From the IMG/VR virus record IMGVR_UViG_3300007214_000006: DNA of 64,000 nucleotides; one strand, written 5' to 3'. How positions within the stretch are numbered: position 1 is the first letter of the stretch; each line of letters begins with the position of its first letter. Under the pieces are notes generated by a model. It saw only the letters and a list, made by a program, of their open reading frames with translations. It was not told where the DNA came from and did no database searches. Both the position numbers and the translations under genes were made by a program. Positions 29,695-63,868 of the stretch are shown here, in pieces. This DNA comes from a virus (taxonomy: Duplodnaviria; Caudoviricetes).

Positions 29695-30388
29695 TTTTCA
29701 AAAAATATGTGTGTTTGATATGGAAACTGACGGGGTTAACCCTGATCAGTGTAGTCCTGTGCAGATTGCTGCTGTTATTGTAGATCCAATAAAACTAGAA
29801 ATAGTTAAAGATTCCGAATTTAATATTAATTTAAAGCCAGAATTATTAGAAAATAATATAAGTTACAAATATGAAGATAGTGATGTTCTTGACTTTCATT
29901 CAAAAGTACGAGGTTGCTCCAAGTCTTCTATATTAGAATCTTGGGGCAAATACCAATCACAAGAGGCTGGTTGGAAAATGTTCGTTTCGTATCTTGAAAT
30001 GTATCATACAAAGTCTAACGGAACTAAAAAATCCTGCTTTTCTGCACCAATAGCTGCTGGCTTTAATATAAATAAATTTGATTTACGAATTATAGAGAGG
30101 CTTAGTGTAAAATATAATTCTCTAAATAAAGAAGGCAGATCCTCGTTGTTTTATCCCAGAGATGTAATTGATGTAATGAATCTTTTATTTTATTGGTTTG
30201 AATATAATAATGAACTTAAAAACTATACACTAGATAATCTAAGAGATTATTTGGGTATAGATAAAACTAATGCTCATGATGCATTAAAAGATGTGAAGGA
30301 CACAGCCAATATCATGATAAGGTTTTTAAAATTGCATAGAAACCTGTCTAATAAAGTTAAATTTAAAGGATCTTTTGTAAATGCCTAA
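29687..30388 (+). CDS. DEDDh 3'-5' exonuclease (DnaQ/epsilon-like)
   Basis: Exo I VFDMETDG, Exo II AGFNINKFD, Exo III HDALKD. Confidence 0.9.
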   Translation: MPNFQKICVFDMETDGVNPDQCSPVQIAAVIVDPIKLEIVKDSEFNINLKPELLENNISYKYEDSDVLDFHSKVRGCSKSSILESWGKYQSQEAGWKMFVSYLEMYHTKSNGTKKSCFSAPIAAGFNINKFDLRIIERLSVKYNSLNKEGRSSLFYPRDVIDVMNLLFYWFEYNNELKNYTLDNLRDYLGIDKTNAHDALKDVKDTANIMIRFLKLHRNLSNKVKFKGSFVNA

Positions 30389-47200: not shown

Positions 47201-48314
47201 AGTTTATAAATTCGAAAATAAAATCTTGAATCTGTTGGTCTCTCAAAATAGATACGGTTGTTCTATCAATTAAAGGATGAGTAGCAAGTAAATGGCAAAT
47301 TTTTTTAAATAATTTAGATTGCAAAGAAGTTAAATTGGGTAAGGGTACCATCGCTCCCTTCATTCTTTGAATTCTTCTTTTATTGAGATTGGCAGATAAC
47401 GCATGATATACTTCTCTATATATATTAGATAGAGATGGAGATATGAATGATGAAGAACAGGATTTATTTTCATAAGCTTCTACTCTTATTTCTGGAGATC
47501 TAAAATAACTATATGTATCTCCGTAAGGTATCCATAAAGATACATTTGAGCTTGAATCTATAATAGGATCTTCATTGTCTAAATTGATAGTAAATAATAT
47601 GTCTTGTTTTGTTGTATTTTCATTAGAGGCCAAAAGATTATTTATGGTAAAATATCTAAGATTTGTTGATGGTAAAAAATCTTGATTTTTCTTTGACAAC
47701 GGAGCTTGATCTGGCAGCAATATTCTATCTTTATCTACTTTGATTAAATTTGTTGTATCGTTTAATTGGATAATATAATTTTCATTAATTTTAATTTTAT
47801 AATATTGATTATCTTTATTTGGTAATAATCTGATAGAACTTCCAATAGGAATTTCATCTATAGTTAATCCAGACGAAGAAGAGCTATTTCTTTTGAACCA
47901 AAACATAAGCCCATACTCTGGATAAAATGGACATAGTTCAGACGTTAGTATCCAGTCTGTTGACATAAATGGAGAATCATTTATTTCCCAACTCTGAAAT
48001 TGTGGCCTAAATATATAAACCGCATCCTCTACTCCTAAGTTTGGAGTAAATGTGGTAGCTCCTCTATATAAACTTATAGTATTAATATAACTGTTTTTAC
48101 TTGTGACGAATACCGGATGCCAAACATCGGTTTCTTGTGTAAAATATATATTTTTCTTTATAAAATTTATAGCATTTGTCATATCCACGTCACTAGAATG
48201 CAAATTAGACATACCATTCCAAGAATATATTATCTTTGATTCTTTGGAATTATATGTATAACTGTATAAATCATCAAAGAAAGACTTATCATAAAAAACA
48301 CAATTCTTAGCCAT
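41208..48314 (-). CDS. 2368-aa giant probable virion/tail protein with PKD-like and P-domain-like segments
   Basis: Uninterrupted ORF; ILWRRVSG...FIKAPGKYVLEVRV (PKD/REJ-like); IGNIEVKLNF..NPKNLVIWL...WELIL (proprotein-convertase P-domain-like). Confidence 0.7.
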   Translation of the reverse strand: MAKNCVFYDKSFFDDLYSYTYNSKESKIIYSWNGMSNLHSSDVDMTNAINFIKKNIYFTQETDVWHPVFVTSKNSYINTISLYRGATTFTPNLGVEDAVYIFRPQFQSWEINDSPFMSTDWILTSELCPFYPEYGLMFWFKRNSSSSSGLTIDEIPIGSSIRLLPNKDNQYYKIKINENYIIQLNDTTNLIKVDKDRILLPDQAPLSKKNQDFLPSTNLRYFTINNLLASNENTTKQDILFTINLDNEDPIIDSSSNVSLWIPYGDTYSYFRSPEIRVEAYENKSCSSSFISPSLSNIYREVYHALSANLNKRRIQRMKGAMVPLPNLTSLQSKLFKKICHLLATHPLIDRTTVSILRDQQIQDFIFEFINSVPRSVENEITIVKQALNIITKYFSDLNTNVNLKTNHQSTYSNGFVSTRSDLFYKIIHKYGSKLKLENISELKYREGLPNGPHIKINQEITSKCDKNLFNQTIYNNVSISAGFFNIKTNFDNTATKIILENSQNPAEKNIIPLWDIEKTKIKNIRIPITAGPDIEIDFGRQDASSIKEIEYQLPDAIEYNQKYETSIIGAEAPDILWRRVSGTDCIRFGDPKQPTLRYETATSAGPKIFIKAPGKYVLEVRVRTSFATIYDTVTIHVNGIIETKKTNIEGEDREQTEEENTIITTSYTRFTRLRPASVQYIEARRNLSIMIPNIRECYIGKQGVFWPSYTDCSVKVPQGLANPDEPPGPGNSLPPAVIPLGNNYHKFAIPMVMDKKGNKIIQNLQCPFSITYDCNNTIIILDRITLTHLSDPTEKGLGCPSLYEGIVDQAGFILDGGSNLSGFDFIDPSDNDETVSVKAPTELSTNHLNVGAYGGFSADIIKSLNINIPYHPRPGSYLKNIDTKEELLNGNKRDDGTVTHLCHDTDLSFGSPILFRKGCFHPYHGWTNSKQFNNLSSVVNFDPYNRDVQVFKGPGFHTLDNDFLDGQTRIYKSSILLKVDKIAYDPNNIKNDEDLEAYERAEVGDYITNYGYRSIGGNVSLKTLNYNDEFDQNLAIEDDNPVSSDNYCTDNIAENNYYTSYTFSRPGSLIPFKDRKSKGKRRLRWNRHGGSSIGNIEVKLNFLNYVNPKNLVIWLEIYPCANVSERLNPPPSEDGNPSKPKDPWFKDSYYQKYAEFSSLPDRYGEIKGVGAPATHPDEIKKFLYSLWYMNDNISLKGESSISPFKDDPKTPRDPVYRIYLLNQEHIEDYEYNVNIKFSDLLDIYKNASNNNYTESTLYIDNNVSNKINNTIDLSATLSAAGYSDIEVAKYKKIMIENKLCNNSHKFSKVIGMPLFSQSKESNQAPNSSDTTFTLCIAVTDESDIFEPYDRVIATQQMTGFDSCIQRNRSNLVQNSLCNWELILHRTENNHGFIPGDMLGNIKYENENPSIPGYNFIADLTDKLHLLPPSVINAPNAYTIDGRLCRYSKENINIPKYSQPNPLVIMPLLFIFPITLIGAAAGFGGFDSAMNEQTRVLVDTLNSMRTQRQRDTFNQDWYVPNYQKYPVGSSDKVLLSISKDNEMFYKLEASIFKYNNSVVMNKPKYKFYKLCYDGYLRNLSLFKSNLVQDDNFIDIFYKNYIKTLTEDGEIDPLDTKLYDDDICHISGNKDRKQVYIFVKSLMGLGGIPGKPINSFKDMLYTDNYVKYNNIFDLTKNTDNFDTLIDEKRLVVIEGLRAYYFFENNKKIVEFTPKKPEDIDTESLETFKKRLADYKTENKKDFVLTYLESQIFLLQHNILENNILNIGYIFDSESYKTILILESSAESGSIISLSEKNSNRIIVMDDEYTTIDNKNIIPLNIWSFGNSQAINTNMSEDQNISAWGVGNYGYGSNVTTRFTLSEPDIQSKIIPFIDRIHYRKNSSLDRNTCSIILDNSNTKIDGTIKSHAFIYKTNNINNSINKHKHIYIDNNINKEYGKIYNKIFKDIHFNVYEKQILNNEITEIDIDLSRQDGGFLTGTIIFDKNLTPIKIYKLENPGDLPKLKDRLLVLEDLIEAKITESKKLSKTYGIFPFSSSEGNKQMYSEKEEAMIVLRQLYDEKNNIEYYLNKLENPIDNIASIPHINIQITQNNDQSLTIKEKENKNLYWINIDPEQGCAIDKDRSPKVLKTVKFKCLGYNDIVTLNAKTICIQPSVNDIPEDIGVNESFNNNRGLYGFEYKLSDEGIEAIKSKYTKVKWPEENNPNYIIERKFFLSLDGKERAQEVIGIYEYITPIGPENPDIEPDGDLKNKVYNIFNLDNTNELYVEFKRIPRLLRNKDLEFDLYEPNNFGELTKSILPAPGGPSDSSFRVWKCIDSKTGSYVAPPNVYYQWLNEMLFRTYFGSVDGVEHRGREMVKSKDETYWIPYDFS

Positions 48315-51300
48315 TAATTATTTCCTATTAAAATCCACTTACCGTTTTCGAATAAAAACATCCCTCTTTTTTGTATTCCTGCATTTATATTAAAATTAAA
48401 TCTGGTATTGTCAAAAATAATTGGGATCCTCGGTGCATTTTCTGGTTTTTTGAAACCTTGAATATATGTCAAAGATATTATAGCATTATTACCAGCAGTA
48501 ATATTACCAAAAACAATAAAAGATTGCTTAGAAATAGGCTCATAAAAACCAGAAGAAGTATCATATCTACATAATAGTTTTGCTCCTCTTGGCGCAGTAT
48601 AGCCACATCTGTCTTTCACATAAACTAATTTTCTAATTCCATAATCCATAGGCATAATAGAATATTCAACATCATCAATAAATGCTCTTGTAGGATAAGA
48701 TTCAGAACTACCGTTGGGCAATATCATATCTTCTTCTAGTGTTATATAAACCATTTTATATGGGCATTTATTTTTAGTGTTACTTTTACTTACAAAATTA
48801 TTTAACAAAGATATGTCGTTACCGCTAGCCACAATATATGGAGGTAATATTTCTCCTTCGCATCCTCCGCCGCTAGCTGACCAAACTCTTCTGTCGTTAT
48901 CCCATCTTACATCTATAGGCCCAACAGGCCAAAGATCAGGGCGCTCTGCCCAGTTTAAATGAAAATATTTACTTTTTGTTTTTACCCATTCATTGCCATC
49001 CTTTTTATATCCTTTACCTATAATATCTCCTAATAAATTATTTGATGTTGGTAAAAAAGCACCATCTTTTGTTAAATCATTGGTTCCAGAGGCTGTTAAT
49101 ATAAATCTTTTTGGTCTTCCATAATTATCTATTTCTAATGGTTCATCAGCCGCATTTGGCACAGGATACCCTTCCGTATCATAACCCCAACCATGCATCA
49201 TCAAAGGTCCTCTTAATCCAAAAAATCTTTGATTTAATAAAATGTTTTCATTAGTATTATATTTATATGTTAAATCTATATCATAAAAATCTTTATTTAC
49301 TGTTTTGCTTAAATCTGTAACTTTCATTAGTTCATTGCTCTCTAGTCCAACTTGATATTCCGAAGATGGTACTCTACTTACGCAAAATTGTCCTGTTTGT
49401 GGATCATATAAGCTTTGTAGATTTTTAGTTATATCAAGACTCTCAAAATCTATAGGAGCATATTCTGATCTTCCTATCACAGCTATACTATGTCTTGATC
49501 TTTCGCCGCTTGTGGGTGGTTGTGCATTAGGGTTCTTAAATTCGCCAAAAGGAACTACTATAGGATTTAAAGATAGAATATTTATTTCTCCAGGAGCATC
49601 TGTATCTGTGGATTCTCCAGATGGATATACTATCTTTGAGCCACAACATAATGGACAAGGATAATCTATTTCATTTTCAAAATCATCTGTATCTTTACTA
49701 GCAATAGACGCTTTATAAAAACCTAATCCTCCGCACTTTGGACAGATAACATTTTTCTTTTTTAGATCATTCGTTATACATCTTGAAGAAAGCGAATATG
49801 TACTTCCAAATACTGTAGGATAAAATGATATCGGAGAAAAAAATCCATCCATACTCATTACTGATTTAGAATCATATTCTTTTGACAACTCAGATAATAT
49901 TTCATTTGGCATATACAATGCCGTTTTAGTATGATGCCTCTCTAATTTTGAACCAGAAGCTCCAGGGTCTTGAGAAACTATGTGACTTTTAGGAATATAA
50001 TGCATAGCTCTGCCGATAAATACCTCGGACGGGCTTCTGCCATAAATTTTGGATTCGAAAGCTGATAAAGACGTATTAGATCTAGTACTCGAAGCATTAG
50101 AGGTTAGTTTATTTATTTGGTTAATAATTTTCTGTTCAAATTTTGTTTGCATATCCGCCATTTTTTTAAGCAATGATATCCTAGAAGTAGAAAATTGTTT
50201 GATTCTATCGGCATTTTCTTTGCTATATATGCCCAATTTTTGAGAGTATGTTCTAAAATTATAATTTGTAGACACGCCATTTACTGAACCATTAGTAGAA
50301 ATACTACTAAGAATTAAGCCTGTATAGTTATCTATATAATTTTTAGGCAAAACTGCACAAGCAAAGCCATATACATTTTGTGTAAAAAATGTATGAATGT
50401 CGTTGTCTGTTAAACCGATTGTCAAGCCGCCAGCTAAACCACATATTGGCGGACCATAGATAGAAATTTGTCCATTTTCTAAAACAGACTGATATGACGT
50501 TTCTGCTGTTATTGTATTGATAACCAATAAATCCAATGCTGACGCTCCTCCTGTTTGCCACGGAACAAACTCTTCTTTTCTTTCGACTTTCACATCAGAT
50601 ATTAATTGTTCTAAAGAATTTTGCGTATTTAATATACCAGGAAAGATAACAGATTGATTATTTAAGCTAGGATAATTTGTCCATGGTCCATAACAAAATA
50701 AATTGGATTTTAATGGAATTCCAGCGAATAGAGGTTGCGCCATTTTGGGACTGATGCTTTCGTGTTTGGAAGATTGGTCAGATGAATCTCCTTCAGATAC
50801 TAAAAATCCATTATCTAAAATAGGAATACAATATGACATCAAAATCTTTTTTAGCCCAGGAGTTAATAAATTCTTTTTCTCCAAAACAGCTAAATCTTCT
50901 ATAGCAACATTAGCTATAACAGTAAGATTAGGATCTTTAGTATAAGAATAACTACTATTAAATAATTCTATACCAGGAGAATCAATAATAACCCTCGGCC
51001 CAATCAAATTATTCGGATCCCAAAAGCATATATCATCACATGTTGTGGTTATATATAATTTTTGTGATGGTGCATAAAATATTGATCTTTTTATTTTTTC
51101 GTTATTACCAGAATCCTGTTTCTTTCCTTCATCATCAGAATCTTGTTCTTTATTCTCTTCTGCTGGCTTTTCTACCACCGATGAAGTTGCGGACCTCCCA
51201 AAAGCATCCTGACGCACATCGTTTGTATTAATCAATAAATAATCTTGACCAATAGAGGAGAGATTAATAGATGGAACTATTTTTTTTTCACAGTTAATTG

Positions 51301-54268
51301 ATGAGCCTATTCTGTTTGCCCAAGCTTGGTCGTATTGTCTCCTTTCTTTTTTATTTTGTATAACAACAGATGTATCATCTTTCTTAATAAGATTACTATT
51401 ATTTCTCATTTTCAGTTGTTTTAGTTTAAAATCATCACTTTTTTCACACCAAACACGAGATGCGTCATCATAATTAAAAGAAGCATTATATCCCAGAATT
51501 GGTTTAATTAATCCTTTATCGTCTATTAGTCTATAATATGCCGGTCCTCCAACAATAATTGAATCATCTATTTCATTTCCAAGTTCTTCCCACGCCCCGT
51601 CTACTAATTCTTTATCAAAAAATATTTTTCCGCTTCCTTGATATACTAATATATTTCCGCTAGAAGCTGGTATCTGTATATCTGCATATACTTTATCTCT
51701 ATATGCTTTTAAACCAGGAATTCTAACCAAATATTTTTTCCCATAATATTTATCTCCTATGTTTTTTATGAAATCTACCAAAATACGTAAATCGCTAATA
51801 AATTCATAACTAAGAGTATATCCAAAATTAATATTAGTCTTTCTTTTTTCTGAATTAGGGGTATTTGTTTTTTGTTTGGCATCTCCTGAATAATTTATAC
51901 CTTCGTCGTTTACGCCAGTAAAGCCAGTTCCAACAGCTTGAGAATTTGATGCAAATCCGGGGGTTGGCAATACAGTTAATTTACCTAATTTTTTATATAA
52001 ATTAACTAACATCACAAATAAATCTGGTTTTTCTGTTTTATATTTGGCTAAACAATATGCTAAATACGAGTCGAACCCTGCAATCGCGGCTCTAATTTCT
52101 GTTTCAGTAATTTTAAAAGCAAAATCATTGATTTTTTGAGGGTTGTTTCTTATTGGCTTAATTGTTTTTTTATTATCGTCTTGCGTTTGCTCATCACTTT
52201 CTGGCAATTGATTATCCTCTACAGGATCCTCTTCCTCTTTGGATTCATTTTCGCTAAGACCCTGTTGCGGAACTGGCATATTATTAGGCAGAGCGGGGTC
52301 TACGGCATATAAACTAGCCATAGAACCTAAAGATAATATAGGCAATTCTCTAGTAGACATAGTAACGGCGAGCTGTCCTGTCCATCTATCCAAAAATACT
52401 GGGCGAATATATCTAAAAATATTATTGGTTGTCGCGGCTAGTTCTATTTGTTCGTTATGCTTATAACCAAAAAAAGGACTGATAGCATGATTTATTAATG
52501 GCACATATCTTGTATTAGGGGAATTACTAGTCTGGTTATCAGTTGGATTTTCTCCAGACGTTGGTGGGGATTCTTGGTTATCTGAATTTTCTCCAGTGAT
52601 TATTTTTTTAGGAGCATATGGCACACCATTTCCAAAAGCAAAAGCAGAGTGATAATTGCCAACCCATGGGACATTTTTCCCTCCAATATTAGCATCAGAA
52701 AAAACAATATCTGATTTATTAAAATTATCACCAGTAAAAGTTTGTCTAATAATTTCATTTCCATCATAAAGTTCCGATAGAGATGCTGACCCAAGAAGCA
52801 TTTTATTTAAAACTGTATTTTTAGTAGATAAAAAATTTGGAACTTTTATTGCGGAATGTTTTCCTGTGAATCTATCAAAATTTACAAATTGATCAATAAT
52901 AGGATTATATATATAATTTGTTTGAGAGTATGCAAGAGTATAAGATTTGGCCTGATATAACCGTTGTTGATTACCTCCTATATACATAACTTTTGGAGAG
53001 CATTGATTTTGTTCTTTTCCAAAAGTTGTATAGGTTGTTGATAGACCAGTATTCTCTAAATTTGTAACAAAAGAAGAAACAGCATTTGGAGTTACAGAAA
53101 TAGTTCTGTTGATAGTTTTTACTTTGATAACATTGAGACCATTTTTGCGTAAAATCACAGTATAAAAATCTCTACCGGTTTTTTCACAAGCCACCCTAAT
53201 AAGATCTGCTATGCTCAATGAAGAATCAGGAGCACTAATTCTTATATCCAATGGTGGCCTTGGTATTTCAGAAAGATCCAAAGTAAATAATGATCTAAGA
53301 TTACCATCTGTGGATAATTCTGGAGATATAATTCCAAACCCACCATCTGCAAAATTAGCGACCACAGGAACAGTAGTATTTGTAAGTGCTGTTGGGGCTA
53401 TAATTCTACCAAAAGGAGAGAATGCTTGTTTAACTCCTAAAGAATTAATATTTACTACCGAAGTTAATGTAGACAGAGCATCTAAAACATATGCCAATGG
53501 CATACCTTCGTCATTTTTAGATGATGCTCCAAATCCATAAGATTCTAAAAAACCATAAACATTAAAAACGTTAGGGATATTACCATCTTTTAAAGAACCT
53601 ATGTAATTTATTCTATTATCAATAAAATTAATAGGTCCTCCAAAAGATCCAGCATATTTAGCGAATATAGCTCCAGCATAATGATCTATAATGACCTTAG
53701 AATTTTGTAAAATATCATCAGCAGAAGAAATTGTTACAGTGTAAGACACTGTGTTTTGTCTATTACTTCTTTCCCATGATTTGATAACACCTCCGAAACT
53801 AAAATATCCATACCTAAAGTAAACCGGGCATCCTATTATATTATAGCTGTATAAATTATTTGGATCATAGACACCATTTGCATTAATATGAGTTGCATGA
53901 CCCAAAAATCCAGGATCGCTTGTTGTCCAATACTTAGAAATTAAATTGTCATTTCTTATAGCATGATAGACTTTGCCTGGAACAATTTTATCTTTACTTT
54001 TTGCTGAATTATATGGTTGACCAGTCTCATCAATATAACAACTATCGTCTATACAATTATAATAATGATTATCTGGATAGGATAAAGCATTGCTATTAAA
54101 AACATTGATTGAGCACGGGGATATGTCGTTGATTAATTCTACAGTAAGGGATGACGACGATCCTCCCCAACCTAAATTATTATTAAAAGATACTATGCTT
54201 GATCCTAAGAAAAGCTGTTGAGCTATTACGCTTGATCCTTTAATATTTCTTAAACATGAATTAGGCAT
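48314..54268 (-). CDS. 1984-aa giant probable tail/baseplate protein
   Basis: Uninterrupted ORF; N-terminal FLGSSIVSFNNNLGWGGSSSSLTVEL...FSFGGVIKSW resembles tail-hub beta folds; CPKCGGLG...CPLC; C-terminal FFGLRGPLMMHGWGYD...PIDVRWD. Confidence 0.7.
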   Translation of the reverse strand: MPNSCLRNIKGSSVIAQQLFLGSSIVSFNNNLGWGGSSSSLTVELINDISPCSINVFNSNALSYPDNHYYNCIDDSCYIDETGQPYNSAKSKDKIVPGKVYHAIRNDNLISKYWTTSDPGFLGHATHINANGVYDPNNLYSYNIIGCPVYFRYGYFSFGGVIKSWERSNRQNTVSYTVTISSADDILQNSKVIIDHYAGAIFAKYAGSFGGPINFIDNRINYIGSLKDGNIPNVFNVYGFLESYGFGASSKNDEGMPLAYVLDALSTLTSVVNINSLGVKQAFSPFGRIIAPTALTNTTVPVVANFADGGFGIISPELSTDGNLRSLFTLDLSEIPRPPLDIRISAPDSSLSIADLIRVACEKTGRDFYTVILRKNGLNVIKVKTINRTISVTPNAVSSFVTNLENTGLSTTYTTFGKEQNQCSPKVMYIGGNQQRLYQAKSYTLAYSQTNYIYNPIIDQFVNFDRFTGKHSAIKVPNFLSTKNTVLNKMLLGSASLSELYDGNEIIRQTFTGDNFNKSDIVFSDANIGGKNVPWVGNYHSAFAFGNGVPYAPKKIITGENSDNQESPPTSGENPTDNQTSNSPNTRYVPLINHAISPFFGYKHNEQIELAATTNNIFRYIRPVFLDRWTGQLAVTMSTRELPILSLGSMASLYAVDPALPNNMPVPQQGLSENESKEEEDPVEDNQLPESDEQTQDDNKKTIKPIRNNPQKINDFAFKITETEIRAAIAGFDSYLAYCLAKYKTEKPDLFVMLVNLYKKLGKLTVLPTPGFASNSQAVGTGFTGVNDEGINYSGDAKQKTNTPNSEKRKTNINFGYTLSYEFISDLRILVDFIKNIGDKYYGKKYLVRIPGLKAYRDKVYADIQIPASSGNILVYQGSGKIFFDKELVDGAWEELGNEIDDSIIVGGPAYYRLIDDKGLIKPILGYNASFNYDDASRVWCEKSDDFKLKQLKMRNNSNLIKKDDTSVVIQNKKERRQYDQAWANRIGSSINCEKKIVPSINLSSIGQDYLLINTNDVRQDAFGRSATSSVVEKPAEENKEQDSDDEGKKQDSGNNEKIKRSIFYAPSQKLYITTTCDDICFWDPNNLIGPRVIIDSPGIELFNSSYSYTKDPNLTVIANVAIEDLAVLEKKNLLTPGLKKILMSYCIPILDNGFLVSEGDSSDQSSKHESISPKMAQPLFAGIPLKSNLFCYGPWTNYPSLNNQSVIFPGILNTQNSLEQLISDVKVERKEEFVPWQTGGASALDLLVINTITAETSYQSVLENGQISIYGPPICGLAGGLTIGLTDNDIHTFFTQNVYGFACAVLPKNYIDNYTGLILSSISTNGSVNGVSTNYNFRTYSQKLGIYSKENADRIKQFSTSRISLLKKMADMQTKFEQKIINQINKLTSNASSTRSNTSLSAFESKIYGRSPSEVFIGRAMHYIPKSHIVSQDPGASGSKLERHHTKTALYMPNEILSELSKEYDSKSVMSMDGFFSPISFYPTVFGSTYSLSSRCITNDLKKKNVICPKCGGLGFYKASIASKDTDDFENEIDYPCPLCCGSKIVYPSGESTDTDAPGEINILSLNPIVVPFGEFKNPNAQPPTSGERSRHSIAVIGRSEYAPIDFESLDITKNLQSLYDPQTGQFCVSRVPSSEYQVGLESNELMKVTDLSKTVNKDFYDIDLTYKYNTNENILLNQRFFGLRGPLMMHGWGYDTEGYPVPNAADEPLEIDNYGRPKRFILTASGTNDLTKDGAFLPTSNNLLGDIIGKGYKKDGNEWVKTKSKYFHLNWAERPDLWPVGPIDVRWDNDRRVWSASGGGCEGEILPPYIVASGNDISLLNNFVSKSNTKNKCPYKMVYITLEEDMILPNGSSESYPTRAFIDDVEYSIMPMDYGIRKLVYVKDRCGYTAPRGAKLLCRYDTSSGFYEPISKQSFIVFGNITAGNNAIISLTYIQGFKKPENAPRIPIIFDNTRFNFNINAGIQKRGMFLFENGKWILIGNN

Positions 54269-54271
54269 TAT

Positions 54272-56161
54272 TTAATGATCCATATAGTGTCTATTTAATG
54301 AACAATGTTCAAAAATCCAACTAACTGATCTAGAATATCTACCCTGAGACGGAGACCATGTTTCAGAGTCTGATTGTACAAACACAACTCCATATCTCTG
54401 AGAAATAGAGTTTTCAAATAAAGCATTTGTTCTATCTCCAAATGGCCTATGTCCTTCAATAATAAGATCTATATTTTGCCATAAAGGATTATTTCTATAT
54501 AATGGACAAGATGGATCTGTTTGTATAGATTCTCTTGGAGAAGAGGGCGGTACTATAACAACCTCAACACTAACACTTTTTCTACCTGTTGTTTTTCCGT
54601 TTGATGTTATAATAGGTCCTAATTGGCGCCCAATAACCTGAGTTTCTGTGGTATTATCAACAGGTGAATCTATAGTTACGCTTACATTTTCGCTAAGAAC
54701 ACCATTCCATACTGAAGCTAACATATTTCTTTTATTATTAAACTCATAGCTATAATTAATAGTTCCTCGATGTGGATCATGACTTTCTGATGTCGATACA
54801 GGAACAATATTTAACGTATTTTCTGTCGCAAAATTTGGATGAGTATTTTGAGGAATCGGATTAATATCATTATAGTCATTTGTGCGATCATAACTATTTA
54901 TGGCTAATGATGCACGTCTATATAAAAGAGGTTTTACTTTTTGTATCCATCCATCGCGAGCGCTATCATATTTATTTGACTTAGGACTAATATTATTTTG
55001 CAACGTAGTGTCAGAAGTAGTTTGTCCAACATATTCTGAAAATTTTAAATTAATTGGATTATTGATACCAGTACCTGTTGGCATTATTCCTGATGTTCCG
55101 TCCATAATAGTTGTAGGAGTTTCTACCAAACCCTGTAAGGATCCAGCAATCCTTACTGTTGTAACATATTCTTGAGAGGTTGATCTTTCTATATTAAATG
55201 TTTCTATATACCCAATTTTTTCAGGCATTGCTAGCCAAGAATCATTTACTTCATATGTTCCATTGTAGATATCTATATTTGTACTTCTAGCATGATTATA
55301 TAAATGAGTGCCAGAAGAATTAGCAAAATAAGGAGATCCACCAGAAGCATCTATACCACCAAACGGTTTTTTTAATTGTTTTTCTACCCAAGATTTGGCA
55401 TAAAGATAAGATTTATTATTTTGGCTAATAGCAGAATCAACCGTTAAACATCCAGTAGCACTAATTATTGGAATACCTTTAGCAGATAATCTCCTGGTGA
55501 TTCTAAATTGTGGAATAGAAGTAATATTTGTAGAAGAAGATCCCATGAGCCCGGCGCCGTTAAGAGCATCTATAACACCAGCATTTGGAGAAAAGGCTCC
55601 GTATCCTGGTGGGCTTTCTGGTTTTGTAGATACTCTATAATTCTGGTTAATATATGATATATCCTCTTGAGGTTCTATACTCCAACTCTCTGATCTATCA
55701 GTAACACTGTCTGATCCGCTAACAGCGGTTAAAAATTCTAATCCGATACTGTAATCTGCTGTTTGAGTCCAATTGTTTTCTGTTTTATTAATACTTAAAT
55801 TTGTAACTCTTACCCCATTCATACTATACATTGTATCGTTATTGCATTTAATTTCAAATAATCCATTAGAACAACTAAATAATTCTTCTAATTTTTTGAT
55901 AGATCCAATGATACCACTTATGCCAGTAGAGCCATTTGTATCTATTGCTCCTTTATTTGTGCTGACTATTTTTCCTGTTAGATCTATCTGGTTAGATACG
56001 CTTTCAACAATATTATTGCTATTAGCATTGAATGTTTTTGATATATCCACAAACGGCTCTGGTCCAACTATAGATCCGATATTAATTCCTCTATAAAAGA
56101 CTTTAATTCCGCTTGACGGCAAAGACTGAGTATTAAACAACAATAAATCTTGATTAAACAT
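54272..56161 (-). CDS. Probable virion structural protein
   Basis: SD GAGG; beta-rich, Ser/Thr/Asn-rich; lies in the structural operon. Confidence 0.65.
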   Translation of the reverse strand: MFNQDLLLFNTQSLPSSGIKVFYRGINIGSIVGPEPFVDISKTFNANSNNIVESVSNQIDLTGKIVSTNKGAIDTNGSTGISGIIGSIKKLEELFSCSNGLFEIKCNNDTMYSMNGVRVTNLSINKTENNWTQTADYSIGLEFLTAVSGSDSVTDRSESWSIEPQEDISYINQNYRVSTKPESPPGYGAFSPNAGVIDALNGAGLMGSSSTNITSIPQFRITRRLSAKGIPIISATGCLTVDSAISQNNKSYLYAKSWVEKQLKKPFGGIDASGGSPYFANSSGTHLYNHARSTNIDIYNGTYEVNDSWLAMPEKIGYIETFNIERSTSQEYVTTVRIAGSLQGLVETPTTIMDGTSGIMPTGTGINNPINLKFSEYVGQTTSDTTLQNNISPKSNKYDSARDGWIQKVKPLLYRRASLAINSYDRTNDYNDINPIPQNTHPNFATENTLNIVPVSTSESHDPHRGTINYSYEFNNKRNMLASVWNGVLSENVSVTIDSPVDNTTETQVIGRQLGPIITSNGKTTGRKSVSVEVVIVPPSSPRESIQTDPSCPLYRNNPLWQNIDLIIEGHRPFGDRTNALFENSISQRYGVVFVQSDSETWSPSQGRYSRSVSWIFEHCSLNRHYMDH

Positions 56162-56172
56162 CCTCTATCCCT

Positions 56173-57417
56173 TTATGTTAGATCGACAGGACCCATATAT
56201 ATAGGGGTAATTTTTCCAGTGATTTCTGTTCCTAAATAATCAACTTTCAAAATATCTGCATCATATATTCTATAATTATATTGTAATTGTCCAAGATTAT
56301 TCCCTTGATATTTTAGCATTGCAACACTAGGTATCTCCGATAGGTCTGGTAAATATTCTGTAGTTTTCGCCACTTCAGAAAATTTGACAGGTTGACCACT
56401 CGGTGGCGGATTCATAGCCACAACCAAGTCTTTGAAAGATTCTGAAGTAATAAAAATATCATCTATGATAATATCATAAGATTTATTACCTAAATTTGCA
56501 ATATATTTAGTACTTTCAATATTATTGTAAGCAGTTAAAATAGCTGATCTGATTTGCTCGACTGTAACATTTTTTTCTTTCATAACTAATGGATCAGCTA
56601 TAATTCTAAATCTATTTTTATAGCCTCTATTTGGCAATAGCTGGCTGTTCTTTTTGTTTAAGATTATAGAATTAATATTATTATTATATGGTATAAATTT
56701 AGCTAAAATATAATTTTGATGAACATAAGTCCAATTATTGTCTTTATTTAAAAAGATAAACTCATCTTTAATCGGATTATTAGATATAATTTCACAAGGA
56801 ATACTTGAAGAGTCAGAAACTATAATTTCTTTATATTGTGTTTTTATTATAGCTTCAGAATCAAATCCTTTTATTGTCATTTTAAGTAATACTTTACAAG
56901 AATTAGAAAATTTAGGTACTATTTGTAAAGAAGTGACTGGTATAAATTTATCATTACCAGATATAATGTAGCTTTCTGGTGTGATATCAACAAATGTTCC
57001 TGTCGGCACAATTGATTCCGCATTAAATTCCAAAATATAACTATTTTTAGGCTCTATATTATTTGCTAAATATATTTGACCAAGAGCATCAGTTGATTCT
57101 GCGTCTGGTTGACTCTGAAAATAAGAGATTTCATCATTTTGAACATTTGTCAATATAAAACTACCGACATAAGAGTTATTTAAAATAATTTCAGGATTTA
57201 AAAAATTAGAATTATTCGAAGAAACTATAATCCTAGATCCTGTTGATATAGGATATGCTGGATTTATATTAGCTAAAGATAAAGTTGATGTGCCTTCTGT
57301 TCTTACAGAAGAGACTGTATCAGCGACCTTAATTGGTCTTGGTCTTAATTCATCAAATGTTATGTTTAGTCCGCAAGCAGCAGAAATTATATTGTATTGG
57401 TGTGTTTGTATAAGCAT
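56173..57417 (-). CDS. Hypothetical structural-region protein
   Basis: Operon-packed long ORF; no motif recognised. Confidence 0.65.
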   Translation of the reverse strand: MLIQTHQYNIISAACGLNITFDELRPRPIKVADTVSSVRTEGTSTLSLANINPAYPISTGSRIIVSSNNSNFLNPEIILNNSYVGSFILTNVQNDEISYFQSQPDAESTDALGQIYLANNIEPKNSYILEFNAESIVPTGTFVDITPESYIISGNDKFIPVTSLQIVPKFSNSCKVLLKMTIKGFDSEAIIKTQYKEIIVSDSSSIPCEIISNNPIKDEFIFLNKDNNWTYVHQNYILAKFIPYNNNINSIILNKKNSQLLPNRGYKNRFRIIADPLVMKEKNVTVEQIRSAILTAYNNIESTKYIANLGNKSYDIIIDDIFITSESFKDLVVAMNPPPSGQPVKFSEVAKTTEYLPDLSEIPSVAMLKYQGNNLGQLQYNYRIYDADILKVDYLGTEITGKITPIYMGPVDLT

Positions 57418-57424
57418 AAATAAT

Positions 57425-57946
57425 CTAGCAGTTTCCGCAGGATATTGTGATTGTTCGACTTGTAAGTTCTATTAACTCAGAAGATGAATTGTAGTTTAAT
57501 ATTTTAAACTTTAATATGGTTAAGTTTTTAGCTCCTGAAATACTCAATGTAACTGGTATAACCGCCTCTTTTAAAGGGATAACGTTATTTGTTGAAGTAT
57601 CTGTATAATCATATTCTGTATATATGGGCGTATTAATAGTATAAGTAACATCATTACCACTTAGATCCTCAAGTTCAAAAATATAATTACCATCTATAGT
57701 TAAATCTATAACTTTGACATTTAATATATCCCCATTGCAACAAAAATTATTTATTGCATCAAAAGTAATACCAGGTATTTTACTAAAACATACTTGTTTA
57801 CCTACGAATTCCACAATGGATCCGTTAACTAATTTTGTATATAATTTTCCAGTTACCGCATTTATTGCTATTTCTCCAACAATAAGCTGATCTGAATGTG
57901 GTGGATTAGTTGTTTTTTGATCATTCTTTAGTCTTAAGACGCCCAT
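57425..57946 (-). CDS. Small protein with a tail-fibre/Mtd N-terminal-like module
   Basis: SD AAGGAG; LRLKN...PPHSDQLIVGEIAINAVTGKLYTK. Confidence 0.7.
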   Translation of the reverse strand: MGVLRLKNDQKTTNPPHSDQLIVGEIAINAVTGKLYTKLVNGSIVEFVGKQVCFSKIPGITFDAINNFCCNGDILNVKVIDLTIDGNYIFELEDLSGNDVTYTINTPIYTEYDYTDTSTNNVIPLKEAVIPVTLSISGAKNLTILKFKILNYNSSSELIELTSRTITISCGNC

Positions 57947-57964
57947 AAATATATATTCTCCTTA

Positions 57965-60900
57965 TTAATAACATACCCCAGTAAACATCATTCCCAATCC
58001 GCTAGGCCCTCCACTAAAATCAAAAGAATCTGATCCAAAAGTTGGTGAAGGGTCGGTCTGTGTTGACCTAGGATCTCCATCTGTTCCGACGCTTCTCAGT
58101 TCTGATGGCTCGCTGCTTCCGTAGCTATTTATAGCTACAATTTTAAAGAAATATGTATTATTTTCTGAAATATTACTAATGAGTAAATTTGTCGCTGTTG
58201 GACTTACAGAACCATTGTATGTAATCCAAGAAAATTGGCCTATTGGTGTGATGCCATCATCGGGCCAATAATAGACAATATATCCATCTCTAGGAGCCAA
58301 ACCATCACTAATAGGAGCAGTCCATGACAATAATGCGTCATACTGATTTCTTACAATAGACAACGATTGCGGCTTACCAGGAACATCGCTAGATGGAGTT
58401 ACCAAAGGAGTAGGATCACTAGGCTGAGATTTGCCTACAACGCTAATTGCTATGACTCTAAATTTATATGATGTCGTCGAAAACAGATTGCCTATATATC
58501 TATAGGTAGCTGGATCCGCAACCAAAGGTAATCCGTCACTGGTTATTTGTTCACTTTCTAATGGAAGCCAGTCCTCTGCTATATCAGAATAATATTCTAT
58601 TAGATAAGCATAAATTGGTTTTCCTCCATCGTTTTCTGGAGCTTGCCATTCTAGAACTATCGCATTGTATTTGGGTGTTGCAACTACATTTGTGGGCTGA
58701 CCGGGAAGCTCTGGATTCGGCGGAGGAATAAGGGAAACTATCTGTCCCAAAGTATTTATCGTTAATGGATAATTAGGCACATATAGTTTTTTGTTTATCG
58801 ATTCTTCATATGGCACAGGAATCGCTCCATCCCAAACAGGATTAAGTACCAATTCATTGGTTATAACACCTTTACTATATGTATAACCATCTACACTTAG
58901 GTCCGCATAATTCGATAGAGGTAAATTACCACTAACCAATACTCCTGTGGAACTAATTTCTAATCCGTATTCTTTTTCTAGCGCTAGATTCTCTTCTGGT
59001 GTAGAAGCGTAAGATATAATACCCTCATAAACCCCACTAAGCGATGTGATAGCGTAAGGATTATTTCTATTTATAGTAATCTTTGGTTTTATGTCTAATT
59101 GTATTCCGGTTGCTCTAACAATCTGTTGATTTTGTACTATATCTGTTTTTCTAAAAATTCCACTCTCCAAAGATCCTAAAACACTATTTGGAATAGAAGC
59201 ATGTACTCTAAAAGCTGGAACCAAACCAGAAGGTACGCCATTTTCATTTGTTCCAAACCATTCTGGTTCGTATCTAGTAAATAATGTTTTTCTGTGGCCA
59301 TAAACAATAAAATCAATATCTTCAGCTATTTTATTAAATGTAGTATAAATATTAGGTCTAATACTAATTGTATTAATTGTGCTTGGCTTGAATCTATATT
59401 CACTATCTGTTGATAAACCATCGCATGTAAATCCTTCAACAGCTTCTGGCTCAATCTTCATTTCAAGATAAGCACCCTTTTGTATAGAAAATGCGTAACC
59501 TATATATCTACCATTGTCAACATCTCCTTCTCCTAAAACCAATTGAGACTGAGAATAAAAACTTTCTGGTATAGGAGGACATACAGTAACTATTAGATCG
59601 GCTTCATCAGTAAAGAAATCTTTAGTTCCATCGCTAGCTCTGGCATCTACTAAACTAATATTAGCAACTTTGACATAAAATACTTCTTTATTTTGATTAT
59701 AAATAGCAATAGTCTCATTGTAAGCAAATTCTTGAGATATATCATTTAAGTCTATTGGCCCTGTGCCTCCTTTGGATTCATCCAAAACAATAAATCTAAA
59801 TCTATCTATGTCTCCTTCTGCTTCTATTCCCATAAACTCAATAGCTCTTCTGGGATATCTGGTCCATGTAACACCAGGGGCACTTAGATAATCCGGCTGT
59901 TTCCATAGTGCTGGACCTGTACCGTTATGTGTTAAAATACTGCCACTAAATCCGGGAACTAAAGGTCCAACAAAAATCCTATCGGTATATAATGCTGGTG
60001 GTAGTTCTGGCTCAGTAGAGCTTTGGCCACCAGATGGTTTATATATACCAACTACATAATTACCAAGAGACTGAGCCTGAGATGGGGCTAATCCAATACC
60101 GAACCAATTCGATGCGGTCAAGTATCCTTGAGATGAATTATGTATAATTGCATTTTCTGCTGTGCCATTTAATACTGGATATAATCCTGAGTTATTAACA
60201 GTTCCTCCCGTGCTATCAATTGACGATACTACCATATATTCTGATTTTAAATAATCAGAAGAAATAACTTTGGTATCATTAACTTTGAATAAAAACCCAC
60301 CGCTTGATCCAGGAAACATACCTCCTGGCACAACATTTCCATCAGAACCTAAATATTCGAGCCCGCCACTGGGACTTATTCTAACCCCACCTTTACTGTC
60401 TAATCCTGAGCCTATAAAAATAGATTGGTAAAATTCTGTTCCAGATGGTGTTATATTAACTAAATTTATTGGATTTATTTTATTAATAAATACAGTATTG
60501 CCTGTTGTGGCAAAAACTATACCGGTATTAGATATGACGGTTCCAAATGTTCCAGTAACTAATGCTGTTGGAGATGATTCTACTACGGTATTGTCTCCCC
60601 CAAGTTTAATATGAAAATAATTCCCGGAACTATTAGCAGACAATACTTGGCTATCTGATGGTCCCAAATTTAAGCTGTCTGCATATAGATTTCCTGAAAT
60701 GCTCAAAGCGGATATTAGTCCGCTACCATATTCAAATGGAGCTAATCTATTTACAGTAATTGCTGTTCCGGAGGATGAAATAGTTTCTGTTGGCATAGGA
60801 ACATAATATGCTGCCTTATGCCATTCATTTAAAGATGGTAGCCAATATTTTGGATCTTTTTTCCTTGTTACCGCAATTGTTCCTGCTGATTCACTAATAT

Positions 60901-63868
60901 AATAAGATCCGTCCTCGGTAGTGGTGGATGAAACTAGATCTCCGGTTGGCGCACCATTATTTAACCAATTAATAAACCTTAGTGAACTTAGATAGTTTAT
61001 ATATACTGCTGGCATATTTAACATGCCATCTTTTGTAGAATAACTGAACGGCGTAGTTGAACCATTTCCGGTTCTTAGTATTCCTCCATGTACGCTATTA
61101 GACATTCTAATATCATAAAGACCATTAGCAGCAGCCCCTGTAGCCACAGCATTTAAGAAAGAAACATATTGTTTATTCGTTATCTCTGTTTCAGAGATTG
61201 TATATGGGTAATTTACTGATCCAAGATTATTTTTACTTATAGGTGTTGGTTCGGCTTTGACAGTAAATCTATTATTAAATGATTCTGTAAATAATGGAGA
61301 CGAATCAGATGGATTGTTGGTATTTTCTACAGAAGTGAACTTGAATTGCATAGACTCATTGATGTTAGCATCCATAAATCCAGCTTTTGAGCATATTCTA
61401 AATCCAACATCATCAAAACCCGACAATCTAGGGGTTGGTATATAACCCCTTAAACTATTGACATCAGATGTTCTCCACGATCCTCCGCATATATACTGAT
61501 TAGTATTGATAGAAGATATTTTTTGATCATCTTCTATCCACTCATAAACATTTCCGTTTTGATCATATGTTCCATAAAAACTTTTTCTACCATTGGTTGA
61601 TACAACGCTAACCATTCCAGTCCAATATACGGATCCTGGAGTATAAGCAGCCTCCTGGAAATTCACTGTATTATTTGATCCACCAACTCCATTACCATTC
61701 ACAGAAATTTTAACAGGAATAGGGTCTATCGACGAGCCATCTGCTGATTCTAATTGAGTAGCATATTTATAATATTTACCTGATGGCTGGGTATTGACTG
61801 TTGCTTTAGCAAATATATTTAACGCTGGTATATCGCTAGTTCCATAAATCAAAAAATCTATATTCTTTTTTGTTGTATTAAAAATTGTTGGAATATTTGG
61901 TCTGGTGCTAAGTTGAATTGCAGTAGCATCAGAAACAACACCAGAAGTATACAATTCATTTTTTAATACTCCGCCTCTTGTGATAGAGAATATACTTAAA
62001 TCTCCAGATAGATTAATACTATCCTGAACAACCAATCCAGTAATTTCATCATTTGTAACAAAAATATCTTCTATTGTGTTGTATAATATACTATTATCAG
62101 AAGTGTTATTTATTGCTATTTGATCTCCAATAACAAATTCTTCTATTGGGGCTGGGGTTATAAGGTCTATTTCTTTAGTAGTTTTACCTATGCAAACTTG
62201 ACCGGATCTACTTGGATATCTAGTCCAGGATAAGTCTTTTCCACCTAGTCGAGGATTACCTGTTTCATATGGCCATAAATCAGAAATATTTAATTGAGAA
62301 ACTACTGTACCGCCATCAGTGGTTGTTAATATTTTTCCTGCGCTCTGATTGCCCAAACCTGGAATTTTGAAGCCTGTTGTTGCAATAATTCTTTGAGAAG
62401 AATCTAAACATAATAATTGATTTGTTTGATTAATATATGGCAATCTTAATGATGTTAAAACGGATACTACACCAGTTGTAACTATATTAGAGGCTCTTAT
62501 CCCGACAGACGAATCATTACCAGTACTTGCTATAGAAATAGAAGAAGACCCTAAAGAAATATTACTGTTGTTAAAACTTATACTATCGCCAGAAGACGAT
62601 ATTTCTAATTTTGCGCCACCATTGGAAATCAATGTTAGATCTGGATCTGTACTAATAGTTGTTTTAGATAGTATTCCATCAGAAACTACAAAATTTATTT
62701 GCCCATCTCCATTTACAACAGATTTAGTATTAGCTTCTATTGATGCATACGAAACTTTATTTCCGCTATTGTTTTTAGCAGAGAAGGAAACCTTGCCAAT
62801 CGTCCTGTTGTCGGCGTTATTTAATGAGTATGGATTTTTATATAAAGCTATGTGGGCGGGAAATTCGCATGAAGATTTATTTTCTAATCTTAGATCTTCA
62901 TTGCATATATTATTTATAATATGAAAAACTGTGGCTGGTTTTATGCCGGATGGCATATTTAATCCAAATCGTCCATCGTGAGTAAAGATCAAATTTCTAG
63001 AAGGATAATTGGGTAAGTTGCCACTGCCATATACTATAAAATTACCTGATTCTTTAGTTTGATTAAATATTGTATCAAAAGATCCAGATGAAGGAATCAC
63101 ATTTTTAGCTAAATTTTCTGTAGAAGAACCAAATAAAATTTTATTATTATTTCCAACATAAGCATTAGCTCCAGCAAAAGAACCCGCATCATTATACTGT
63201 AATGATCTATCATCTCCATGTGGTGTGCTTTGTGCAGAAAACGCTGATTCTGCATCGTAAGATAAAGTGGATGTATTACTATTATTGGTATTCAGTATCA
63301 CCCAATCTTTGCCGGTTGACACAATAGAAGCATAATCATCATTTGATAAAGATAATAAATGGCTGTTCTCATATTTAATAGATAATGATCCCGATCCGAT
63401 AACTTTAAAAAATATTTCTAATCCAATATTATTTTTAGGATTCAATAAGCATGCTTCTATATATCCGGTTGATGTATCAACTATGTAAACTGTCTTTTTG
63501 TTATCAATAGTAAAATTATTATTTTTAACAGAAACATTATTAAATCCTGTATTAAAATTTAATGAATTTACAAACAAATAAAACTGTTTTGTTCCTCTAT
63601 CAGAAAATTGAGTTTGATGATTATTATTTGATGAAGAAACCACCGTTCTATTTGTTATCACTATTGCAGAATCTCTTTTATAAATTTCTCCAGCGCCAAT
63701 TTCCCATTCTATTGTATTTGAATCTATAATATTTCTAGCTAAATATGGTATAGTAGATCCGATATGAGATTCGTTTAGATTGTTATATCCTGGTAATGTA
63801 TTTAATATGACTATATCATTATTATTATTAACAGAAAAAAGACATCCTATATTATCGAATATATGCAT
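57965..63868 (-). CDS. 1967-aa tail-fibre-like protein: fibre modules, circularly permuted FGE-sulfatase domain, two C-terminal FN3 domains
   Basis: EWEIGAG...VVSSSN module; VDTSTG...FKVIG...STGKDWVI; SLQYNDAGSFAG; YDQNGNVYEW/GGSW/GFR then TEITNKQY/LPSLNEWHKAAYY; FN3 PGQP...LEWQAPENDGGKPI.AY.IEY and PGKP...LSWTAP. Confidence 0.85.
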   Translation of the reverse strand: MHIFDNIGCLFSVNNNNDIVILNTLPGYNNLNESHIGSTIPYLARNIIDSNTIEWEIGAGEIYKRDSAIVITNRTVVSSSNNNHQTQFSDRGTKQFYLFVNSLNFNTGFNNVSVKNNNFTIDNKKTVYIVDTSTGYIEACLLNPKNNIGLEIFFKVIGSGSLSIKYENSHLLSLSNDDYASIVSTGKDWVILNTNNSNTSTLSYDAESAFSAQSTPHGDDRSLQYNDAGSFAGANAYVGNNNKILFGSSTENLAKNVIPSSGSFDTIFNQTKESGNFIVYGSGNLPNYPSRNLIFTHDGRFGLNMPSGIKPATVFHIINNICNEDLRLENKSSCEFPAHIALYKNPYSLNNADNRTIGKVSFSAKNNSGNKVSYASIEANTKSVVNGDGQINFVVSDGILSKTTISTDPDLTLISNGGAKLEISSSGDSISFNNSNISLGSSSISIASTGNDSSVGIRASNIVTTGVVSVLTSLRLPYINQTNQLLCLDSSQRIIATTGFKIPGLGNQSAGKILTTTDGGTVVSQLNISDLWPYETGNPRLGGKDLSWTRYPSRSGQVCIGKTTKEIDLITPAPIEEFVIGDQIAINNTSDNSILYNTIEDIFVTNDEITGLVVQDSINLSGDLSIFSITRGGVLKNELYTSGVVSDATAIQLSTRPNIPTIFNTTKKNIDFLIYGTSDIPALNIFAKATVNTQPSGKYYKYATQLESADGSSIDPIPVKISVNGNGVGGSNNTVNFQEAAYTPGSVYWTGMVSVVSTNGRKSFYGTYDQNGNVYEWIEDDQKISSINTNQYICGGSWRTSDVNSLRGYIPTPRLSGFDDVGFRICSKAGFMDANINESMQFKFTSVENTNNPSDSSPLFTESFNNRFTVKAEPTPISKNNLGSVNYPYTISETEITNKQYVSFLNAVATGAAANGLYDIRMSNSVHGGILRTGNGSTTPFSYSTKDGMLNMPAVYINYLSSLRFINWLNNGAPTGDLVSSTTTEDGSYYISESAGTIAVTRKKDPKYWLPSLNEWHKAAYYVPMPTETISSSGTAITVNRLAPFEYGSGLISALSISGNLYADSLNLGPSDSQVLSANSSGNYFHIKLGGDNTVVESSPTALVTGTFGTVISNTGIVFATTGNTVFINKINPINLVNITPSGTEFYQSIFIGSGLDSKGGVRISPSGGLEYLGSDGNVVPGGMFPGSSGGFLFKVNDTKVISSDYLKSEYMVVSSIDSTGGTVNNSGLYPVLNGTAENAIIHNSSQGYLTASNWFGIGLAPSQAQSLGNYVVGIYKPSGGQSSTEPELPPALYTDRIFVGPLVPGFSGSILTHNGTGPALWKQPDYLSAPGVTWTRYPRRAIEFMGIEAEGDIDRFRFIVLDESKGGTGPIDLNDISQEFAYNETIAIYNQNKEVFYVKVANISLVDARASDGTKDFFTDEADLIVTVCPPIPESFYSQSQLVLGEGDVDNGRYIGYAFSIQKGAYLEMKIEPEAVEGFTCDGLSTDSEYRFKPSTINTISIRPNIYTTFNKIAEDIDFIVYGHRKTLFTRYEPEWFGTNENGVPSGLVPAFRVHASIPNSVLGSLESGIFRKTDIVQNQQIVRATGIQLDIKPKITINRNNPYAITSLSGVYEGIISYASTPEENLALEKEYGLEISSTGVLVSGNLPLSNYADLSVDGYTYSKGVITNELVLNPVWDGAIPVPYEESINKKLYVPNYPLTINTLGQIVSLIPPPNPELPGQPTNVVATPKYNAIVLEWQAPENDGGKPIYAYLIEYYSDIAEDWLPLESEQITSDGLPLVADPATYRYIGNLFSTTSYKFRVIAISVVGKSQPSDPTPLVTPSSDVPGKPQSLSIVRNQYDALLSWTAPISDGLAPRDGYIVYYWPDDGITPIGQFSWITYNGSVSPTATNLLISNISENNTYFFKIVAINSYGSSEPSELRSVGTDGDPRSTQTDPSPTFGSDSFDFSGGPSGLGMMFTGVCY

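Follow-up and report, generated by a model that had tools for sequence, protein, structure and literature searches.

Does a giant phage tail protein that carries the motifs of an FGE-sulfatase domain in the wrong order contain one domain whose halves have changed places, or the incomplete remains of two? The question is raised by P0001, a protein encoded in a 64,000-nucleotide stretch of a Caudoviricetes genome (IMG/VR record IMGVR_UViG_3300007214_000006), which we refer to as the window. A preliminary description of this stretch had proposed a circularly permuted domain related to the formylglycine-generating enzyme (FGE), with the C-type-lectin (CLec) fold, at 60803–61775, corresponding to aa 698–1022. 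We confirm that P0001 contains a circularly permuted FGE-sulfatase/CLec-fold domain with swapped halves, and place it at aa 693–1022. The alignments, together with models from two structure predictors, show two pieces that are complete, adjacent and predicted to pack as one domain, in an arrangement that is conserved across a large family.

Order of the two halves and predicted fold

The colinear motif order of the family (EVTn.qY, LPtE.EW, then GNVWEW, GGSW and GFR) fails in the native chain of P0001, and only the re-ordered sequence is colinear. The Pfam profile PF03781 matched the protein in two stretches with their order swapped, aa ~754–825 aligning with profile positions 166–253 and aa 887–1020 with positions 35–122. 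With the whole protein scoring 35.9 bits and aa 680–1060 alone 42.9 bits, against a cut-off of 23.3, the domain belongs to the superfamily; the first piece, which represents the old C-terminal third (the C-part, the second piece being the N-part), scores under the Pfam cut-off when taken alone. We obtained the same inverted pattern with a hidden Markov model (HMM) of 308 positions, built from 22 canonical N-to-C units of related proteins. In the native chain, aa 698–832 matched HMM positions 196–301 (59.9 bits, E 1e-20) and aa 846–1022 matched positions 18–187 (167.5 bits, E 2e-53). Once the chain was re-ordered (aa 833–1022 followed by aa 693–832), there was a single colinear match covering positions 18–298 of 308 with 234.5 bits, and the seam joining KAAYY to TQPSGKYYKYAT fitted the canonical loop with a gap of only three residues. 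The single near-full-length match and the rebuilt seam imply that no part of the domain is missing and that each half is present once, in swapped order. The two partial matches in inverted order are what the preliminary description had anticipated, and the re-ordering bears out its central claim.

A search of the sequences of solved structures gave the same picture. CarF (5aoh) matched in inverted order (E 2.6e-05), and residues 173–270 of SUMF2 (1y4j) matched aa 741–831 (42–132 of the aa 700–1060 query), within the first piece. Judged by these sequence comparisons, the inverted-order matches are far beyond chance. The pieces, their motifs and the other features of the protein are listed in Table 1.

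Table 1. Coordinates of P0001 and of its features in the protein and in the window
Feature	Protein position	Window position	Strand	Basis
P0001, giant tail protein gene	1967 aa	57965..63868	-	open reading frame list and translation
Predicted N-terminal tailspike-type anchor domain	aa 109–197	63278..63544	-	AlphaFold2 model of aa 1–400, VIA-align, Foldseek
Circularly permuted FGE-sulfatase/C-type-lectin-fold domain, ~330 residues	aa 693–1022	60803..61792	-	inverted Pfam stretches, re-ordered HMM match, AlphaFold2
First piece, old C-terminal third (YYKYAT, YGTYDQNGNVYEW, GGSW, GFR)	aa 693–832	61373..61792	-	canonical HMM, Pfam, model alignment
Motif KYYKYAT	aa 698			read from translation
Motif SFYGTYDQNGNVYEW	aa 763–777			read from translation
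Motif GGSW	aa 795			read from translation
GGSW...GFR segment, equivalent to the retroelement variable region and the FGE catalytic-cysteine stretch	aa 795–824	61397..61486	-	no Cys, no repeat in window
Motif GFRICS	aa 822–827			read from translation
Short link from old C-terminal strand (GFRI) to old N-terminal strand (MQFKF)	aa 825–839	61352..61396	-	sequence; both sides in confident two-chain interface
Second piece, old N-terminal two thirds (EITNKQY, GGILRTG insert, RFINWLNNG, YWLPSLNEWHKAAYY)	aa 833–1022	60803..61372	-	canonical HMM, Pfam, model alignment
Motif LGSVNYPY	aa 882			read from translation
Motif ITNKQY	aa 896			read from translation
Motif YWLPSLNEWHKAAYY	aa 1008–1022			read from translation
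Two fibronectin type III domains near the C-terminus	aa 1722–1925	58094..58705	-	Pfam fn3, E 1.2e-20, two stretches; boundaries from sequence

For the structure, we modeled aa 735–1045 with AlphaFold2 from an alignment of 92 orthologues (model residue + 734 gives the protein numbering). The model reached a mean predicted local distance difference test score (pLDDT) of 89.5, with confidence above 83 from model residue 21 to 290, and a predicted template modeling score (pTM) of 0.89, so that the two pieces are confidently placed against each other. The prediction is one compact fold with an FGE/CLec core rather than two separate pieces, as the preliminary description expected. The structure aligners that we used are bound to sequential order and see one piece at a time. 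With that limit, they returned FGE-fold proteins exclusively, each half apart and in the swapped ranges expected: model residues 105–294 (aa 839–1028) aligned with residues 2–164 of CarF 5aoh (Z 5.9, 136 residues), residues 95–292 (aa 829–1026) with residues 53–215 of TvpA 2y3c (Z 5.4, root-mean-square deviation (rmsd) 3.7, 139 residues; VIA-align), and residues 1–95 (aa 735–829) with residues 348–449 of OvsA 8u42 (Z 3.9). All significant matches in AlphaFold DB were FGE-family proteins, with TM-scores of at most 0.49 for the partial matches and query-normalized values no higher than 0.50, as only one piece was alignable, and ESM Atlas agreed. Colinear alignment to AlphaFold DB proteins with tandem domains gave an rmsd of 26–27 Å, since there the two pieces belong to different domains. 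Foldseek with the domain model returned nothing at E ≤0.1 in PDB or BFVD, a result expected for a permuted chain and not read as a sign of a new fold.

The pieces were also predicted as separate chains (aa 833–1022 and aa 693–832), each with its own alignment. The pair scored 0.94, whereas none of three controls rose above 0.00. Of 80 solved complexes 58 attain this mark, as do 2 of 110 mismatched pairs; the figures are approximate here because we supplied our own alignments. Contacts agreed between runs to at least 94% and the partner pLDDT was at least 87. The GFR strand paired with the ISETEI and YWLP strands, and the new chain ends are in contact through residue 189 of chain 1 (aa 1021) and residue 8 of chain 2 (aa 700). 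The pass may on the other hand stem from likeness to the solved FGE fold, which is the very point being tested.

Such a test demonstrates mutual fit of the pieces, not their origin in the same chain, and the fit could thus reflect a domain swap in which the chains of a trimeric fibre exchange halves, each C-part pairing with the N-part of a neighbor so that the domain is rebuilt across subunits. Proteins with tailspike-type anchor domains are usually trimers, and P0001 has such a domain. The single-chain model, however, is confident as one body, the old C-terminal and N-terminal strands are linked by only ~15 residues, and isolated permuted units can open a protein or sit flanked by Thr/Pro linkers. 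We therefore regard a swap between chains as improbable.

Distribution and origin of the permuted unit

A homology search identified 92 colinear orthologues of P0001, 1.15–2.0 kaa in length and from many metagenomes. In all 92, phmmer searches with the two pieces found the C-part followed by the N-part, as a single unit and in the same place, at 39–82% identity to the query over the permuted region. Related IMG/VR records of 197–244 kb are rated complete, and we used four of them as complete relatives. Each contains PF03781 in three to four genes, and all 11 adjacent pairs in the four genomes have the C-part before the N-part, with none in reverse order (PF03781 scan). The preliminary description had suggested looking for the order in related phages, and it is present there. 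A profile search of 1.84 billion representative proteins gave 2,791 matches at E ≤1e-30.

We sorted 247 proteins returned by two homology searches by the order of their pieces. A single C–N unit was present in 101 of them and an array beginning with C and finishing with N in 44, while 91 had the canonical array that begins with N and finishes with C; 10 proteins began and finished with N and one began and finished with C. Defining an isolated unit as one with no other half within 150 aa, we counted 140 isolated C–N units in 124 proteins and 27 isolated N–C units. The C-part opens the protein directly in 31 cases, and P0056, P0058 and P0063 have three permuted units each. In proteins of the P0056 type, the first unit begins at residue 2–17 and the last ends near the stop. 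Two side-by-side genes of 1102 and 1535 aa (L025/L027) on the phage-like contig k141_539535 each encode several permuted units; upstream of the pair are glycosyltransferase genes and a gene for a ClpP-like protease.

Possible intermediates are seen in P0003, P0017, P0020–P0025 and others, which have tandem arrays in canonical order, joined by tight C-to-N junctions, at 31–37% identity to the query region. A segment starting in one copy of such an array and ending in the next gives exactly the permuted unit, as in classical duplication and deletion. One of these proteins, P0021, is encoded on a 159-kb phage-like contig beside an open reading frame (ORF) of 2621 aa (loci L023, L024). The arrays of P0017 and P0020–P0025 have four units with overlapping C-to-N junctions and a last N-to-C gap of ~268 residues, and their halves can be paired either canonically or as permuted units.

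The presence of tandem arrays in close relatives also allows the pieces in P0001 to be seen as the relic of a decayed array, that is, two incomplete canonical domains that have lost their partner halves. The flanks of the domain argue against this, as an HMM scan with all filters off found no FGE-like signal in them (≤2 bits), and what lies upstream is one copy of an internal repeat unrelated to FGE. A relic would also hardly explain that the seam restores a canonical loop, that the pieces are predicted to pack together and that the arrangement is kept in the 92 orthologues despite their divergence, and we consider it very improbable.

The breakpoint is not the same in all permuted units. Those of P0056, P0058, P0063 and P0097 are cut in the same loop but 20–45 residues later, and the later-cut units (P0056, P0097) begin 'ANY..W.G..GNV' and end 'KAAYY...YW.YATQ'; the boundary has therefore moved at least once. 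In a tree of 130 units, each restored to canonical order, 60 of 61 permuted units fell in one cluster, two state changes were needed and the orthologues formed one well-supported clade. This pattern fits one main origin followed by spread, without proving it. The preliminary description had further suggested that the domain derives from a host and was permuted for display as a receptor-binding module. Both may be so, but recombination within tandem arrays may just as well have produced the permutation as a side effect.

Diversification, function and overall explanation

Domains of the FGE-type CLec fold are common targets of diversity-generating retroelements (DGRs; PMC5758913, PMC3521204), and the preliminary description had raised a DGR as a lead. 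P0001 could accordingly hold a receptor-binding domain diversified as in Mtd or TvpA, with the retroelement in the ~160 kb of this genome that lie beyond the searched window. We found no reverse transcriptase among the ORFs of at least 285 aa in the window and no RVT_1 match in the four complete related genomes, although positive control genomes matched, and no template-like repeat of nt 61397–61486 within the 64-kb window. A DGR variable protein has a hypervariable C-terminal segment; the domain in P0001 is conserved and located mid-protein. Across 15 orthologues it is among the best conserved segments of P0001: in the most distant of them it is 38–49% identical, compared with 19–40% elsewhere, and the least conserved segment is the 130 residues after the domain. 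Such conservation, as seen in the alignments, is unlike that of a fast-evolving host-range tip. With no reverse transcriptase among those ORFs or in the four relatives, no template repeat in the window and a well conserved domain, we conclude that it is not DGR-diversified; the lead was not upheld, and we give a retroelement elsewhere in the genome very little chance.

Cysteine occurs just twice in the domain, at C794 and C826, and not at all in aa 795–824, between GGSW and GFR. The catalytic cysteine pair of FGE, going by the position in the human enzyme, falls between the GGS and GFR motifs, so the pair that defines formylglycine-generating enzymes proper is absent here. A Pfam scan of P0001 found no other catalytic domain and no DinB-like iron-binding partner domain, and the nearest solved neighbors, TvpA, CarF and PorK, are non-enzymatic. 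With no catalytic pair and with such neighbors, a ligand-binding role is the most likely, and the domain is probably a binding module rather than an enzyme. An active enzyme of the FGE/EgtB/OvoA type, modifying a host or phage protein, would accord with the homology to the FGE-sulfatase family and with EgtB and OvsA among the structural neighbors, but the cysteine-free GGSW–GFR segment, the lack of a DinB-like partner by Pfam and the non-enzymatic closest matches make it highly unlikely.

As a whole, we consider it likely that P0001 contains one complete permuted FGE-superfamily domain that originated from an array, serves in binding and is not diversified by a retroelement. The chain would enter in what is normally the loop after the 'LP..EW.KAAYY' helix, pass through the old C-terminal third (YGTYDQNGNVYEW, GGSW, GFR) and be carried by the 15-residue link to the old N-terminal strand; after the old N-terminal two thirds it would leave right after KAAYY, beside its point of entry. 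The unit may have arisen from canonical tandem arrays by retention of a segment reaching from within one copy into the following one (duplication and deletion), and may later have been passed as a module between large proteins in a clade of uncultured phages of ~200–240 kb. Lacking the catalytic cysteine pair, it would act as a non-enzymatic ligand-binding (adhesion) module, displayed sideways on a trimeric tailspike- or fibre-like protein whose gene adjoins a putative tape measure gene, and would be maintained by ordinary purifying selection rather than retroelement diversification.

Several points weigh against this explanation. The structural evidence is prediction throughout, and aa 693–734, the first 42 residues of the domain, are missing from the AlphaFold2 model, though included in the two-chain test. 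The later-cut units mean that the history may include more than one event, and the permuted cluster in the tree is weakly supported (Shimodaira–Hasegawa-like approximate likelihood ratio test 73), with one permuted unit placed elsewhere. The reverse transcriptase search spans the window and the four relatives, the rest of this genome being outside it. Finally, strong conservation is unusual for a tip that determines host range.

We also put forward, tentatively and as a doubtful extension, that the permuted units form a distinct mobile domain family, copied into several giant tail proteins per genome, on which a widespread clade of jumbo phages from freshwater and the sea mainly relies for adhesion to the host. 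The permutation might then have been fixed because both chain ends meet in one surface loop, allowing the unit to be plugged sideways into fibres or linkers with its binding face outward.

Carrier protein, genome context and known systems

The N-terminus of P0001 resembles the attachment domains of tailspikes and baseplates. An AlphaFold2 model of aa 1–400 was all-beta (pLDDT 79.7), and VIA-align matched its anchor domain to the CBA120 tailspike TSP4 (7rej; Z 10.3, rmsd 2.3, 91 residues), the Pa223 spike (9ny6; Z 9.8) and the KP1 baseplate (9f4a; Z 9.3). The range given in Table 1 is that aligned to 7rfv, and the 7rej alignment extends to model residue 242. The Solidus tailspike (24qj) scored Z 12.5 with an rmsd of 25.8 over 168 residues, indicating that parts match without a rigid superposition. 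Foldseek recovered the same tailspike entries together with the sister KP1 entry 9f4b. From the position of the gene after the putative tape measure gene, an N-terminus like that of the distal tail protein (Dit) had been expected; Dit was absent among the structural matches of aa 1–400, where tailspike anchor domains were the best, a result that still leaves room for a Dit. On the basis of sequence and models, the label 'tail-fibre-like' for P0001 appears reasonable.

No PHROGs family was found for the protein, its parts or the neighboring genes, and the whole of P0001 had no tblastn match in 50,697 GenBank phage records. Within P0001, aa 546–676 repeat as aa 1333–1524 (E 1e-5), and there are three copies of the motif IDF[LI][IV]YG (near aa 280, 707 and 1490), with the FGE unit directly after the second. 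The unit may be an insert in a loop of the internal repeat, of which the upstream side alone is detectable. About 30 related proteins, including P0070, P0072 and P0083, have a shorter form of 1150–1260 aa that is colinear through the FGE unit and ends 130–230 residues past it, which puts the permuted domain near the distal end in those phages.

The longest contig bearing P0001 is 222 kb. The window is phage-like with ~30% G+C and encodes ribonucleotide reductase, RecA, DnaB, primase, a split DnaE polymerase, glycosyltransferases and a collagen-repeat protein. In L001, a relative with 77% identity, an ORF of at least 2517 aa lies immediately upstream of the P0001 homologue; it has no Pfam or PHROG match, and its language-model neighbors include tape-measure clusters at 0.86–0.90, which serves as a lead only. 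Downstream of P0001, five co-oriented genes (173, 414, 629, 1984 and 2368 aa; window 41208–57946, minus strand) have no significant Pfam or PHROG match and are presumably the remainder of the tail-tip module. A 70% repeat between 56252–56301 and 61182–61231 was considered as a second FGE piece in the 414-aa neighbor; translation and a six-frame HMM scan of the window showed none, and we attribute the repeat to chance.

Elsewhere in the window, the DnaE-type polymerase is split over two plus-strand genes, the first with the PHP and Pol III alpha NTPase domains and the second with the finger, HHH and OB domains, and an RNase T-like exonuclease gene sits between the halves (27681–29513, 29687–30388 and 30381–31997, plus strand). 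A subtilase fused to a 2Fe-2S ferredoxin domain is encoded at 35–3448 (plus strand), and the adjoining gene at 3745–5403 (plus strand), for the collagen-repeat protein, is rich in 9-nt periodic repeats.

The FGE-type C-type-lectin fold is a main ligand-recognition scaffold of phages and bacteria and the usual target of DGRs, and a conserved and widespread natural permuted form would mean that this scaffold tolerates re-wiring of the chain. That phages recognize targets with this fold, and that proteins undergo circular permutation, is already known. New are the permuted version of the domain, the large number of such units in a clade of large uncultured phages, and relatives that are likely intermediates. 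The literature searched contained no description of an FGE or CLec domain in permuted form. A survey of 224 cultured jumbo phages found no such domains (PMC7824862), unlike the uncultured phages of 197–244 kb, which carry several per genome. Colinear tools underestimate the permuted domain, as seen from the empty Foldseek searches of PDB and BFVD and from the C-part falling under the Pfam cut-off. With tandem-array relatives and a second breakpoint, the family may offer a clean natural case of permutation by duplication and deletion, and the permuted unit is a candidate adhesion module for finding the hosts of these phages.

Among known systems, the nearest cellular subtype by predicted structure is that of the secreted FGE-like proteins of Planctomycetota and Verrucomicrobiota, many of them with PEP-CTERM anchors, which share the GGI.R.G insert with the phage domain but have the canonical order, often in two tandem domains. 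The likeness to the Planctomycetota proteins, noted in the preliminary description, reappeared among structure-based neighbors in AlphaFold DB, as matches named PEP-CTERM proteins (25–34% identity), and in ESM Atlas, where the second row is a PF03781 protein with PEP-CTERM from Planctomycetota; it does not establish transfer from a host. Human FGE/SUMF1 and pFGE/SUMF2 (1y4j) are homologous to the phage domain and canonical in order, and FGE is a cysteine-dependent oxidase, whereas the equivalent phage segment has no cysteine. The best solved matches, CarF (5aoh) and PorK of the type IX secretion ring (9mzu, 9ots), are also canonical and align with one phage piece at a time. TvpA (Treponema denticola variable protein 1, 2y3c) matches the second piece structurally, but its order is canonical (N-to-C) and a retroelement diversifies the variable region at its C-terminus, while for the permuted phage domain we detected no DGR and the corresponding segment is conserved. 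The receptor-binding protein Mtd in the tail fibre of Bordetella phage BPP-1 is likewise a phage tail protein with a CLec fold; it differs from the phage unit described here in having a CLec domain of another subtype, in canonical order, at the C-terminal tip and diversified by a DGR. For the anchor domain, the likeness to the CBA120 tailspike TSP4 (7rej, 7rfv) is confined to the attachment domain, and the rest of the 1967 aa has no known counterpart. The closest parallels for the permutation itself are swaposin and saposin and the permuted DNA methyltransferases, natural circular permutations explained by duplication and deletion. They follow the same logic of swapped halves, a closed old junction and tandem relatives, in a different fold.

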